A DNA stretch of 64,000 nt from Pseudomonadota bacterium (GTDB lineage: Bacteria > Pseudomonadota > Gammaproteobacteria > Burkholderiales > Sulfuriferulaceae), in contig JAJYHV010000065.1 in NCBI GenBank assembly GCA_021790515.1, forward strand, positions 13,981 to 77,980, given 5' to 3'. Below, in pieces: positions 10,952 through 57,517 of this stretch. A program made the translations under genes and the position numbers. Every line of letters starts with the position of its first letter. The stretch's first letter is position 1. The notes under the pieces are model-generated. The model searched no databases. It saw nothing but the letters and a program-made list of their open reading frames with translations, and was not told the origin of the DNA.

Positions 10952-11588
10952 AATTTGTCTGTTCCATCGAATTGCTCGTCATGACATCGACATACTGACG
11001 CCATGCATCCGTCTCGCCACGATTCGCGATCTGTCTCACCCAAGTGGGGCTATTGTCCCACAAACACGGCTTGCCCGAAACCATGATTCCATTACGGAGA
11101 GGCGGTCGGATTTGATTCGCCATACCCGTTACAGCCGGAAAACAATGGATGTACGCGTCATGAATGGTTATTCCATGGACAAACTTATTGACAAATTCCA
11201 CAACGTCGCCGGCGTGCTTTCCGGTTGCAACCCAGCACGACAAATCAATCAGCGGACTCTGCAACGAAAAATGCCTGCGCCAATCTTCCGAAAGTCAGCG
11301 CAGGCACCACTCGGATGCGTCTCGAACACATCGGACGCACCCCGATGTCAAAAATCAACTATTTGCGGGCAGTTATCAGGAAAAAAACACGACCGATAAA
11401 AAACTCATCCATGCCATCACAATCAACCCCACCACAACGGTCAACGGAAAGTTGGCTTTGCTGAACAGAAAAGTAACCATGTCACACCCCTTATTCACGA
11501 CAACAAGATAAAAAGACTGTTACGTCTTGTTGAAGTGTAACAGACGCCAAGCTCTTTTTAAAGTAATTTAGTATAAAATTGTCTTTAA

Positions 11589-11762
11589 GGAAGCGCTGAT
11601 TAACTCCTCCACGAGGAGCAAAGCAGACCAAATCGCGATAATCGCGAGTCGAACGACGAAGGTCATAGCCAAGACTACGATGCCAAGGAGGTCGGCGAAG
11701 CGAGCGCGCGATTTGGTTGCAACCTATGGGACGGCGTTTGGCGGGCGAACTGCCGTGTTGCG
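11589..11762. mobile_element. MITE-like element, truncated copy (left TIR, module A, start of module B)
   Basis: TTAA followed by GGAAGCGCTGATTAA; about 170 nt closely match 43039-43213; no right TIR. Confidence 0.8.
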
Positions 11763-11803
11763 CAGCCGCCCCGCCCTTTGGGTTGCAACGGGCATCTGGT
11801 ATG

Positions 11804-32725: not shown

Positions 32726-32731
32726 AGGCGC

Positions 32732-32749
32732 TAATCAGCACTTCCTTAA
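32732..32749. mobile_element. Solo TIR plus TTAA remnant of the MITE family
   Basis: Minus strand TTAA-GGAAGTGCTGATTA, 13/14 identical to the TIR. Confidence 0.6.
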
Positions 32750-41294: not shown

Positions 41295-42512
41295 ATGAAC
41301 GATGAAATTCTACTACAGGTTTTTCCTTCCCGATCCCAATCATTGCGCATAGCTTTGGTAACGGAGACCTATCCGCCCGAAATCAATGGTGTGGCCATGA
41401 CGTTGGGGCGGCAGGTTGACGAATTACAGCGTCGTGGGCATCAAATCCAGCTGATTCGACCTAAACAAGGGGTTTTTGATGTCGCGGTATCCAATCCACA
41501 TTTGGAAGAAGTTTTAAAGCCTGGTGTTCCCATTCCACGTTATGCCGGTTTGAAGCTCGGCTTGCCGGCAAAAGCAGCTTTGGTCAAACTTTGGCGATTC
41601 AAGCGGCCGGATCTTGTTCACATTGCCACTGAAGGTCCGCTTGGCTGGTCAGCGCTTTCGGCCGCACAAAAGCTTCGTTTACCCGTCAGTACGGATTTTC
41701 ATACCAATTTTCATAGTTACAGCCGTCACTATGGCGCAGGATGGTTACGTCGCCCCATTCTGGCGTATTTACGCAAATTTCACAACAAGGCCTGTGTGAC
41801 GCTGGTTCCTACCAATGCCATTCGTGAAGAATTGCAAGAACATGGCTACCGTAATCTGGAGGTGGTCGCGCGCGGAGTAGATACCGAACTTTTTCACCCC
41901 GATCGTCGTGATGCACACCTTCGTGCTTCGTGGGGAGTTTTGGATGATACCCCTGTCGTACTATATGTTGGTCGCTTGGCTGCCGAAAAAAACCTGCCGC
42001 TGGTTTTTTCTGCGTTCAATGCGATGCGCCAGGAAAATCAACGGGTAAAGCTGGTTTTGGTCGGTGACGGACCAGAGTTGCCCACACTAAAAACCCGTTA
42101 TCCGGATGCCATTTTTTGCGGTTTGCGCCGAGACGAAGACCTCGCTCGCCACTATGCCTCAGCTGACATTTTTTTATTCCCCAGCCTCACCGAGACTTTT
42201 GGTAACGTTACCACCGAAGCCATGGCAAGCGGTCTGGCAGTGGTTGCTTATAATTACGCGGCAGCTGAAGCTTTAATTCGGCATCGCATCAATGGTTTGG
42301 TCGCTGCACCACAAGATAGTACTGCTTTCGTTCGCGAAGCTGTATCATTGGTCACCGACCCATCACAAATCAAGGGTATCGGAAGGAACGCTTTTCAAAC
42401 AGCATTGTCTATTTCATGGCCTGAAGTGCATGATCGGTTTGAACGTGTTCTACAGGCGCTCGTCGAAAAGGAATCCAACCATGGAGAAATTGAGTTGGCA
42501 ATGGGTAGCTGA
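41295..42512 (+). CDS. GT4 glycosyltransferase
   Basis: TETYPPEINGVA, HIATEGPLG, VGRLAAEKN, SLTETFGNVTTEAMASG. Confidence 0.88.
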   Translation: MNDEILLQVFPSRSQSLRIALVTETYPPEINGVAMTLGRQVDELQRRGHQIQLIRPKQGVFDVAVSNPHLEEVLKPGVPIPRYAGLKLGLPAKAALVKLWRFKRPDLVHIATEGPLGWSALSAAQKLRLPVSTDFHTNFHSYSRHYGAGWLRRPILAYLRKFHNKACVTLVPTNAIREELQEHGYRNLEVVARGVDTELFHPDRRDAHLRASWGVLDDTPVVLYVGRLAAEKNLPLVFSAFNAMRQENQRVKLVLVGDGPELPTLKTRYPDAIFCGLRRDEDLARHYASADIFLFPSLTETFGNVTTEAMASGLAVVAYNYAAAEALIRHRINGLVAAPQDSTAFVREAVSLVTDPSQIKGIGRNAFQTALSISWPEVHDRFERVLQALVEKESNHGEIELAMGS

Positions 42513-43038
42513 ACACGAAGCAGGGGTGACGCGTCGATTGAATCGCGCGGGCAGGTTTCCTGTTTTGTTGTATTTGTTTCGTTACATTAGCCGCCTGGGT
42601 AATGGAATATTCTGGTACGTATTGATGATGGTCATGCTTGCCGTTCAAGGTAATCGTGCGTGGCCAATTGTCTTGCAAATGATCTTTGCCGGGTTGTTTG
42701 GAACGGCCATTTATGTCTGGCTCAAAAAGAAAACAATTCGTCCTCGCCCGCATTGTCAATTTGGCAGCATCCATTGTCTGTTAGCGCCTCTTGACCGTTT
42801 CAGCTTTCCGTCTGGGCATACTTTGCATGCGACAGCTTTTACTTTGGTCGCCATCGTTTATTACCCGTTGCTTGCCTGGTTATTGCTGCCCTTTACCTTG
42901 TTGGTTGCTCTCTCGCGTATGGTATTGGGATTACATTATTTAACTGATGTTTTGGCTGGATTTCTCCTTGGTTCAATCGTTGCCGGAATTTCATTTCTTT
43001 TGCTGGATGTTTTATCAAATTACGGATTAGTGGGTTAA
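42481..43038 (+). CDS. PAP2-family phosphatase
   Basis: K-x4-RPRP, SFPSGH, SRMVLGLHYLTDV. Confidence 0.9.
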   Translation: MEKLSWQWVAEHEAGVTRRLNRAGRFPVLLYLFRYISRLGNGIFWYVLMMVMLAVQGNRAWPIVLQMIFAGLFGTAIYVWLKKKTIRPRPHCQFGSIHCLLAPLDRFSFPSGHTLHATAFTLVAIVYYPLLAWLLLPFTLLVALSRMVLGLHYLTDVLAGFLLGSIVAGISFLLLDVLSNYGLVG

Positions 43039-43313
43039 GGAAGCGCTGATTAACTCCTCCACGAGCCGCGTTGCAGACCAAATCGCGATGATCGCGAGTC
43101 GAGCGACGAAGGTCGTAGCCGGGACTACGATGCCAAGGAGGTCGGCGAAGCGAGCGCGCGATTTGGTTGCAACCCATATGGGACGGGGTTTGGCGGGCGA
43201 ACTGCCGCGTTGCGCCGCTTGTCAAGGAGAATAACCCTTGACTGCGCGTCACGCCTTGCATTTCATCCCGCCAAGCCACCGTCGCGACCGTGTGGGAATT
43301 AATCAGCGCTTCC
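43039..43313. mobile_element. Complete 275-bp MITE-like element
   Basis: Perfect 15-bp TIRs GGAAGCGCTGATTAA / TTAATCAGCGCTTCC; TTAA on both flanks (43035-38 and 43314-17); no transposase. Confidence 0.88.
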
Positions 43314-43324
43314 TTAAGGAAGCC

Positions 43325-43353
43325 AGTCTTTGGTTTGGCCAAGACTCTTTTTT
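43325..43353 (+). terminator. Probable intrinsic terminator
   Basis: AGTCT(T)TGG...CCAAGACT hairpin followed by a T6 run. Confidence 0.5.
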
Positions 43354-43517
43354 CCTTCGTTCGGCACACATGACAACAGGCGCCAAGACTGCTTTCACGT
43401 CTGTTGCGATTTTTTGGCAAACGATTAATGAACGCGCCTACCAGAAATCCGCTTTAACCACGATAATGGTGCTCGCTTATTTTTACGTAGGCTCTTGTCA
43501 TGTTGTTTGTTGCGACA

Positions 43518-56501: not shown

Positions 56502-57371
56502 ATGAGGAAAATCAAAGGGTTAGGTAGAGGGTTGGACGCGTTGCTGGACGCTGAGCGGGTTGTTGACGACGCATTGAAATCGGTAAAACTGGACGAGTTG
56601 TGTCCAGGGAAATACCAGCCGCGGACCAGAATGGACGAAGAAAGCCTGCAAATGCTGGCCGAGTCCATTAAAAAACAAGGTTTGATGCAACCCATTCTGG
56701 TGCGACATACAGAGCAGGATGGACTTGAAATCATTGCGGGCGAACGACGCTGGCGCGCGGCACGGATGGCGGGTTTGCTGGAAGTACCGGTATTGGTGAA
56801 AAACGTTGCTGATGAGCATGCATTGGCGATGTCACTCATTGAAAATATCCAGCGCGAAGATTTGAATCCGTTAGAAGAAGCGAACGGAATACAGCGACTG
56901 ATAACGGAATTTGGTTTGACCCATCAGCAAGCAGCCGATGCTGTCGGCCGATCCCGCAGCGCCGTCAGCAATTTGCTGCGTCTGCTGCAACTACCCCAAC
57001 AGGTACAGCAACTGCTGATGGCGGGTAATCTGGACATGGGGCATGCTCGCGCCTTGCTGTCATTGCCCGAGCAAGAGCAGGGCGTGATTGCGCAACGATT
57101 GGTCGATCAGGCCTGGAGTGTACGCGAAACGGAAAAGCAGGTGGCGCGTTTGTTGCGGGGAGCGCCCGCACCGGAAGGTGTTGTCAAAAACAACACGATG
57201 GATCGCGATGTGTTGAATTTGCTGGAGCGCCTGTCAGAACGCCTGGGATCTCAGGTAAAAATCCAGCAGCAAAAAAAGGGTAATGGAAAATTGATTATTG
57301 AATACCAGAACCTTGATCAACTGGACCAGATTTTGTCCGGATGGAAGGAGACGGAAGGAACCGCTGATTAA
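56502..57371 (+). CDS. parB: Chromosome partitioning protein
   Basis: GLGRGLDALL, QPR, IIAGERRWRAA, LIENIQREDLNP, GRSRSAVSNLLRLL. Confidence 0.96.
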   Translation: MRKIKGLGRGLDALLDAERVVDDALKSVKLDELCPGKYQPRTRMDEESLQMLAESIKKQGLMQPILVRHTEQDGLEIIAGERRWRAARMAGLLEVPVLVKNVADEHALAMSLIENIQREDLNPLEEANGIQRLITEFGLTHQQAADAVGRSRSAVSNLLRLLQLPQQVQQLLMAGNLDMGHARALLSLPEQEQGVIAQRLVDQAWSVRETEKQVARLLRGAPAPEGVVKNNTMDRDVLNLLERLSERLGSQVKIQQQKKGNGKLIIEYQNLDQLDQILSGWKETEGTAD

Positions 57372-57517
57372 TTCCGCCATGAGCCGCATTGCGCCGCTTG
57401 TCAAGATTATTTCTTGGGTACTGACCCAAGGGCGAATAAGCCTTGACTGCGCGCAACACCTTGCAGCTCATCCCGCCAAGCCACCGTCGCGACCATGTGG
57501 GAATAAAGCGCGGTTCC
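57357..57517. mobile_element. MITE-like element, module-A-less variant with degenerate ends
   Basis: GGAACCGCTGATTAA left end; interior matches 43204-43298; right end GCGGTTCC. Confidence 0.75.

Follow-up and report, generated by a model that had tools for sequence, protein, structure and literature searches.

The 64,000-nucleotide stretch of DNA analysed here (the window, C18:13981-77980 of the source assembly G000, a 1.996-Mb draft in 80 contigs with 53.5% G+C) holds a 275-bp element with inverted ends and a strongly paired interior, lying between a PAP2-family phosphatase gene and gyrB. It raises the question of what kind of element this is, by what means it came to its present position and what, if anything, its interior does. 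The whole of the evidence is best explained, at a probability that we place at about 0.85, by a lineage-restricted, non-coding MITE family of IS5 type, which belongs to a small-genome clade of Sulfuriferula and would be moved in trans.

The copy in the window extends from one terminal inverted repeat (TIR) to the other over positions 43039-43313 on the + strand, and serves as the reference for the 275-bp class. Its TIRs are perfect over 15 bp, the left one being GGAAGCGCTGATTAA (43039-43053, + strand) and the right one reading TTAATCAGCGCTTCC on the + strand (43299-43313, - strand). Each is adjoined by a 4-bp target-site duplication, TTAA, at 43035-43038 and at 43314-43317, neither of which has a strand. 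These features had been described in a first-pass annotation of this DNA and are borne out; the similarity of the two ends extends to about 25 nt (CTCCTCCACG). The TAA at 43036-43038, within the left TTAA, is also the stop codon of the upstream PAP2-family ORF (42292-43038), while gyrB converges on the copy from the right. The only ORFs in the copy are one of 48 aa inside the element and an antisense one of 175 aa running through it; such ORFs turn up at other copies too and seem to be a side effect of the repeat. At window positions 43035-43053, and at every copy, target and TIR together put stops in two of the three frames that read into the element: the YTAR target supplies a TAA or a TAG, and GCTGATTAA contains TGA and TAA. 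In this way the family puts stop codons at the ends of genes. Just past the MITE, at about 43322-43355 on the + strand, stands a terminator-like hairpin, AGTCTTTGG...CCAAGACT followed by CTTTTTT, which is weak (z = -1.1 against shuffles, not significant) and was missed by the consensus scan. The copy is probably transcribed as a 3' UTR.

The element has relatives within the window. With up to two mismatches, the TIR is matched five times in the 64 kb (at 11589, 32731, 43039, 43299 and 57357), against 0.17 +/- 0.43 matches in dinucleotide shuffles of the window, none of which reached five in 100 trials. The three further loci to which these matches lead had been named earlier as a truncated, an internally deleted and a solo-TIR relative, and all are real. 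The first, at 11589-11766 (+ strand), is truncated at its 3' side, covers reference positions 1-184 at 92% identity and is preceded by TTAA at 11585-11588. The second, at 57357-57517 (+ strand), is missing what lies between two GCCGCGTTGC direct repeats, a segment comprising hairpin domain A along with the base of domain B. The apical loop of its domain B contains an additional CTTGGGT/ACCCAAG hairpin, its left TIR is a variant (GGAACCGCTGATTAA) and its right TIR is degenerate. The third, at 32731-32749 (- strand), is a solo TIR remnant, GGAAGTGCTGATTAG, with 13 of 15 matches and an adjoining TTAA.

Beyond the window, the family is spread throughout the genome. A BLAST search of G000 with the element returned 132 hits, and a 19-nt end with up to four mismatches was found 190 times, as compared to three times in a shuffled genome. 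Those ends could be paired into 48 elements of 45-331 bp, and the family as a whole occupies about 159 loci, amounting to 0.70% of the genome, so the further copies anticipated from the window alone do exist. Several size classes are represented. A mini class of 45-66 bp (about 20 copies) retains scarcely anything besides the ends; in the class of 123 bp (three copies), reference positions 1-58 are joined to 207-275; and a class of 136-162 bp, which includes the window copy at 57357, arises by deletion between the two GCCGCGTTGC direct repeats. The 275-bp class numbers eight copies in G000, and a class of 328-331 bp carries two extra small hairpins, one between the domains and the other in the apical loop of domain B. 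The four structural states recognised initially thus exist, yet are an undercount, since at least six size classes occur genome-wide. Several derivatives possess identical flanks of their own (for example ATAG/ATAG, CTAA/CTAA and ACAG/ACAG), and were therefore transposed as derivatives. One copy, at G000:C60:2193-2467, is 85% identical to the window copy, carries the TIR variant GGAACCACTGATTTA and groups with the copies of the sister species G022 rather than with the G000 burst; it stems either from an older branch of the family or from exchange between the G000 and G022 lineages. Immediately beside it, at 2471-2555, is a further copy, which is partial.

The flanks of these copies are those of a transposable element with a preferred target. 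The motif YTAR flanks 53 of 94 well-kept MITE ends, where about 1.6% would be expected. Identical 4-bp flanks are observed in 12 of the 48 pairs in G000 and in 8 of 13 copies of at least 260 bp. They also occur in 11 of 15 full copies in G022, a sister species represented by the GenBank MAG "Proteobacteria bacterium DBS1-3.bin12" (JAJYGL01), whose flanking DNA is about 90% identical to that of G000. Some of the identical pairs lie outside the YTAR preference and are also non-palindromic (CTGA, ACAG and ATAG in G000; TTTG, TTAT and ATAG in G022), which establishes the flanking 4-mers as true duplications and not as extensions of the TIR.

Empty sites in a sister genome, a check proposed at the outset, were sought by querying close relatives with the joined flanks of G000 copies and aligning these locally. 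Five insertion points of G000 (C65:11438, C33:12222, C35:21602, C19:93674 and one on C60) are uninterrupted in G022, a comparison which is between species and not between individuals. At C65:11438, G022 has a single perfect CTAA in place of the CTAA-MITE-CTAA of G000, and the same site is also empty in G005 and G013; at C33:12222, G022 has a single TTAA. At C65:11420-11450, as compared with G022:C121 (locus L102), the MITE lies in ATGCACACTAACC, a sequence that has a TAA and, a few bases away, an upstream ATG. For the window locus itself, the PAP2 gene of G022 ends in TTAG and the MITE is absent from the orthologous PAP2-gyrB spacer, which has diverged, so that this was counted as absence only and not as a nucleotide-level empty site. 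A G022 copy in locus L002, considered against contig C5 of G000, was rejected as an empty site owing to a local rearrangement and a masked stretch, which leave the comparison unclean.

A paralogous empty site is also available, as the copy that begins at C17:8017 interrupts one repeat of a second family, other repeats of which are uninterrupted. This second dispersed family, of about 130 nt (CAAAACCCCGGCCTTCAGGCCGG...GGCCTGAAGACCGGTGACC), occurs at G000:C17:7909-8019 and at about 10 other loci (for example C77:302-431 and C57:21198-21327), with dozens of members in G005 and G013. The MITE copy within it spans C17:8017-8344 and has the duplication CTGA. A third repeat, of about 115 nt, lies to the left of C50:6252, and it too is multi-copy in G005 and G013.

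The family was found in 5 of 27 Sulfuriferula species, all with genomes of 1.8-2.3 Mb. Seven recent copies in G000 are 94-100% identical to the window copy; the mean identity is 93.2% within G000 (the divergent C60 copy included) and 84% between G000 and G022, and the copies cluster by host species. This clustering, together with the restricted distribution, points to master copies that would have been inherited vertically and then amplified in separate bursts.

The identity of the enzyme that moves the family is a further matter. The first-pass annotation had taken the GGAA-initiated TIRs and 4-bp YTAR targets as IS5-type characters, and had proposed a genome-wide MITE mobilised in trans by an IS5-type transposase. 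In the G000 draft no DDE_Tnp_1 (PF01609) gene was found, and seven transposases of related loci, used as tblastn queries, gave no IS5-type match there; a DDE_Tnp_1 transposase is likewise missing from G022 and G002. This is weak evidence of absence, since a multi-copy IS is expected to be lost from a draft assembly. An autonomous IS with the same ends, while lacking in G000, does occur in a congener and widely elsewhere. In G042, of the same genus, an IS at locus L018 reads TTAG|GGAAGCACTGATTTATTCTCTCA, and 45 nt past this stretch a DUF772+DDE_Tnp_1 transposase starts, which is cut by the contig end. Relatives of this transposase, 50-94% identical to it in amino-acid sequence, are plentiful in metagenomes and throughout the order, and the homologues in PLSDB are annotated as IS5 family transposases. 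Where both ends are present (for example L047, L056, L061 and L151), the elements measure about 1.19 kb and possess TIRs of the form GGAA[GA]CGCTGATT[TA]A and identical CTAG, TTAG, CTAA or TTAA flanks. The MITE TIR differs from the termini of many such DUF772+DDE_Tnp_1 elements by 0-2 mismatches in 15: the right TIR of L047 (CTAG flanks) is one mismatch away from that of the MITE, that of L151 (TTAG flanks) is identical to it, and the left end of L066, GGAACCACTGATTTA-TTCCCA, is the exact variant borne by many G000 copies. No similarity was found between the MITE interior and the interiors of these elements. An IS5-type gene of G016 (L016) was also considered as partner and was rejected, its ends being unlike those of the MITE.

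The termini and duplication shared with the 1.19-kb elements place the MITE ends in the DUF772+DDE_Tnp_1 clade of the IS5 group, and the earlier assignment of TIR and target is thereby upheld. Of the broader proposal, the genome-wide, non-autonomous character and the IS5-type ends stand, whereas mobilisation in trans by an IS5-group transposase is something that we infer, because the assembly contains no IS5-type transposase gene. The element has every structural feature of a bacterial MITE with IS5-group ends, a partner transposase in the draft being the one that is missing.

A different enzyme might be imagined, as the genome does contain two Y1_Tnp (PF01797) genes of IS200 or RAYT type (C78:272-634 and C16:9301-9627), and the element is extragenic, palindromic and abundant, much as would be a REP/BIME-like repeat dispersed by a Y1 transposase of RAYT type. 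Neither gene has MITE ends in its vicinity, however, and the family shows no GTAG-type head; its 4-bp duplications and clean empty sites are unlike those of REP elements, and its termini match those of IS5-group IS. A REP/BIME-like origin is therefore highly improbable, and has largely been refuted already.

Under the preferred reading of an IS5-type MITE, a DDE transposase of an IS5-group IS (DUF772 + DDE_Tnp_1), supplied in trans, would recognise the 15-19-bp termini GGAAGCGCTGATTAA-YTCC, cut the element out and insert it at 4-bp sites, with a preference for YTAR, whereupon the site would become duplicated. The partner element would be expected to bear the ends GGAAGCGCTGATT[AT]A. The requirement would be limited to about 25 nt at each end, and this would allow forms shortened by internal deletion (45-215 bp) and forms enlarged by extra hairpins (300-331 bp) to spread beside the 275-bp form.

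Such a requirement leaves the interior to be explained. RNAalifold was applied to an alignment of 23 copies, all of the 275-bp class and drawn from four species. The consensus fold comprises 94 pairs, with 98.1% of cells paired; in it the two ends pair with each other as a terminal helix, and the rest forms a pair of long hairpin domains. Domain A (43070-43173, + strand; alignment columns 32-136) contains the stems ACCAAATCGCG/CGCGATTTGGT and TCGTAG/CTACGA, and domain B (43182-43283, + strand; columns 145-247) the stems TGGCGGG/CCCGCCA and GTCAAG/CTTGAC, so that all four stems read from the single window copy recur in the consensus. Compensatory change was detected at 24 pairs, compared to 12.8 +/- 1.8 in column shuffles (none of 500 reached 24), a test in which related sequences can exceed shuffles in the absence of any structure. 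Controls with slid partners gave 2-7 compensatory pairs. In domain A, 12 pairs (helices 2-5) are changed on both sides across species, and 16 of the 24 compensatory pairs are internal, for which co-evolution of the TIRs offers no explanation. The compensatory changes exceed the needs of a purely selfish element that depends on its TIRs only, and in this respect they count against the best explanation.

One reading of this pairing is that the repeat is a functional structured RNA (a 3'-UTR stabiliser, a terminator or an sRNA precursor), dispersed by chance, with its fold selected on the transcript; the first-pass annotation had similarly suggested a structured RNA at mRNA 3' ends. The strong covariation of internal helices in four species agrees with such a role, as do the conservation of the 275-bp length across species, the situation of the window copy between the PAP2 stop and the weak hairpin, where it is probably co-transcribed, and the location of the copies, essentially all of which are intergenic by crude ORF calls (the cases inside ORFs being largely ORFs made by the repeat). 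Convergent spacers are mildly over-represented among the copies (15 of 51, against a background of 18%). The two strands, however, fold about equally well, at -124.5 kcal/mol forward and -115.8 kcal/mol reverse, with 94 pairs each. An apparent excess of G-U departures on the + strand (124 against 21), in the strand test for an RNA role, disappeared once the mirror structure was treated alike: over the union of the pairs of both strands there are 124 G-U and 131 A-C departures. The orientation of copies between tandem genes is also even, 14 being in the same and 14 in the opposite direction. Derivatives without one or both domains have spread as well, and the TIRs, duplications and empty sites are accounted for by transposition and not by RNA function.

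Searches of known families give the same picture. The window had no Rfam match at the gathering score, and the element itself, at E<1, received only sub-threshold hits at chance level; the ends of the IS gave nothing meaningful in Rfam. No match to the element was found by distant blastn in a plasmid collection, nor to the TIR sequence in a full-text search of the literature. The equal folding of the strands and the 14:14 orientation leave a role at mRNA 3' ends without support, and a family that is mainly a functional structured RNA is quite unlikely. Copies and empty sites were found elsewhere and no catalogued family was matched, and the claim of a new dispersed repeat has withstood these checks.

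A second reading dispenses with selection altogether, attributing the pairing to templated correction of quasi-palindromes together with shared ancestry from a few master copies. A fold that is symmetric between strands is what would be expected of a process at the DNA level, and the copies fall into few species-specific clades, so that the 111 compensatory cells reflect few independent events; the tendency of related sequences to exceed shuffles, which is a stated caveat of the tool, operates in the same direction. Against this stand the compensatory changes at 16 internal pairs, distributed over helices 2-5, 7 and 8, and the slid-partner control, which keeps the relatedness of the sequences and nevertheless falls far below the observed 24 pairs. 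Unselected pairing is accordingly a possibility to be kept in mind, although at clearly less than even odds. Because the fold is about equal on either strand, the rod-like, two-domain interior, if it acts, would most likely do so as DNA or as a single-strand hairpin that brings the ends together, or else its pairing may be kept by templated correction; a strand-specific role as RNA appears less likely.

The TIR is itself a target of another mobile element. An IS of IS1111 type is inserted at one fixed position of the TIR (GGA^AGCGCTGATTAA), with no duplication, in at least seven MITE copies. Its right end is found at seven contig ends of G000 (C6 and C22 on the left; C36, C37, C62, C67 and C75 on the right), which read MITE...TTAATCAGCGCTT|ATATGGACGCCTCCCGTTTTGC. 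Its left end is found at G000 C39 and C58 (left) and C77 and C65 (right), and at G022:C35:8518-8728 and G022:C197:1-211, which read YTAR-GGAAG|ATGGGATGGACGCCTCCC. On C39, C58 and C77 an ORF beginning MNFTTYGLDIAKRVF follows about 135 nt on, presumably the N-terminus of a DEDD-type transposase; the other left-end junctions are cut, or can be read for about 40-83 nt only. Of the IS, what is assembled in G000 amounts to 116 nt on the right side and the first 24 codons of this ORF. Its subterminal inverted repeat, ATGGACGCCTCCC, has 13 bp and is set in from the IS ends by 7 bp on the left and by 3 bp on the right. This corresponds to the IS1111 family, in which subterminal inverted repeats are situated 7 bp and 3 bp from the left and right ends and insertion occurs without duplication (PMC11187229). 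When the boundaries are set in this manner, the flanking GGA and AGCGCTGATTAA together give back an exact TIR, and MITE ends of both left and right type have been hit.

A full copy of this IS was not recovered: its ends coincide with contig ends in G000, G022 and G391, and no full copy was among the best 120 homologues. In S. plumbiphila (G001), a relative at 73% identity (L128) shows both IS ends as parts of one element of roughly 1.5 kb, which codes for a DEDD_Tnp_IS110 (PF01548) + Transposase_20 (PF02371) protein followed by a non-coding region of about 250 nt. The target in which L128 lies is an unrelated one, which programmable targeting would predict. No convincing complementarity between a seekRNA and the target was seen by eye in the available 116 nt. 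The IS1111-type element is the cause of many of the contig breaks in the assembly.

Some further observations concern this IS. A contiguous hybrid is present on the minus strand of G000:C29:8601-8820, in which CTAA-GGA|AGATGGGATGGACGCCTCCC is joined to MITE interior (TCCTCCACGAGGAGCAAAGCAGACC...) at C29:8702-8735; the first 25 nt or so of the IS left end stand between CTAA-GGA and the MITE interior, and the hybrid looks like the scar of a deletion, between short repeats, that removed the IS. In sequence, the left end of the IS (CTCCTCCACGGGGAGCAGGGGCAAGC) is similar to the subterminal part of the MITE subfamily that comprises C65, C44 and the window copy at 11589. Over 211 nt the left ends on G000 C58, C39 and C77 are 99.5-100% identical to those on G022:C35 and C197, in genomes that are about 90% identical, which suggests recent transfer between the lineages or contigs shared via binning.

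The paired interior and the targeting of the TIR may conceivably belong together. A joint reading would regard the fold as a functional single-strand structure, of DNA or RNA, serving efficient mobilisation or host use, and the tip of the TIR as the programmed landing site of an RNA-guided recombinase of IS1111 type; as a whole it is rather doubtful. Were it true, a reduced-genome lineage would harbour a three-tier nested system, leading from IS5 transposase to MITE to IS1111-type IS. On the preferred reading, that of a MITE with IS5-group ends, the significance of the family is more modest. It accounts for 0.7% of the DNA in a 2-Mb Sulfuriferula genome, breaks the assembly at many points and is of interest chiefly as a marker for recent change in the genome: its insertions postdate the split from the sister species and can therefore serve as dated markers for the small-genome clade. 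It also offers a natural pair for study, an IS5-type MITE and the IS1111-type element, presumably guided by a seekRNA, that targets its TIR specifically. Current understanding is unchanged by it, and a well-documented example is added.

Compared with known systems, this is a previously uncatalogued MITE family of a familiar type; only its covarying interior and its targeting by an IS1111-type element go beyond the ordinary, and both have precedents. Elements of the IS5 group, such as IS5 of E. coli, are about 1.2 kb long, have ends beginning GGAAGGTG and generate a 4-bp YTAR/CTAG duplication. The MITE resembles them in ends that begin GGAAG, in its 4-bp YTAR duplication and in its autonomous relatives of about 1.19 kb with DUF772+DDE_Tnp_1, yet it has no transposase gene, and its TIR fits the betaproteobacterial and metagenomic sub-clade GGAA[GA]CGCTGATT[TA]A rather than IS5 itself. 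The Correia (NEMIS) elements of Neisseria are likewise abundant intergenic MITEs, with long TIRs, hairpins formed when transcribed, and size classes due to internal deletion. The Sulfuriferula family shares with them its abundance, intergenic location, hairpins and size classes, and differs from them in that Correia elements have a TA duplication, 26-bp TIRs and documented effects on RNA processing and promoters.

In Porphyromonas gingivalis, BrickBuilt, MITE293 and MITE700, the TIRs of which are shared with ISPg1, ISPg3, ISPg4 and ISPg9 (PMC4596501), are similarly short, non-coding, multi-copy elements with TIRs identical or nearly so to those of IS5-family elements; as with the Sulfuriferula MITE, their interiors bear no relation to the IS, and movement in trans is presumed. 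The Sulfuriferula family differs from that group in sequence, host lineage and IS5 subgroup, in having no minisatellite, and in its covarying interior of two hairpin domains, and its duplications are regular 4-bp YTAR sites while those of BrickBuilt are irregular (PMC4596501). As for the targeting of the TIR, QMITE2 of Coxiella burnetii is a landing site of IS1111, within an internal GTAG REP (PMC5896051), and IS4321 and IS5075 insert in the TIRs of the Tn21 family (cited in PMC11187229). In all of these cases an IS1111-type IS splits a dispersed repeat, or the terminal repeat of a transposon, at a fixed position. The Sulfuriferula target differs from that in QMITE2 in being the outer tip of the TIR of an IS5-type MITE, at either end of the element.
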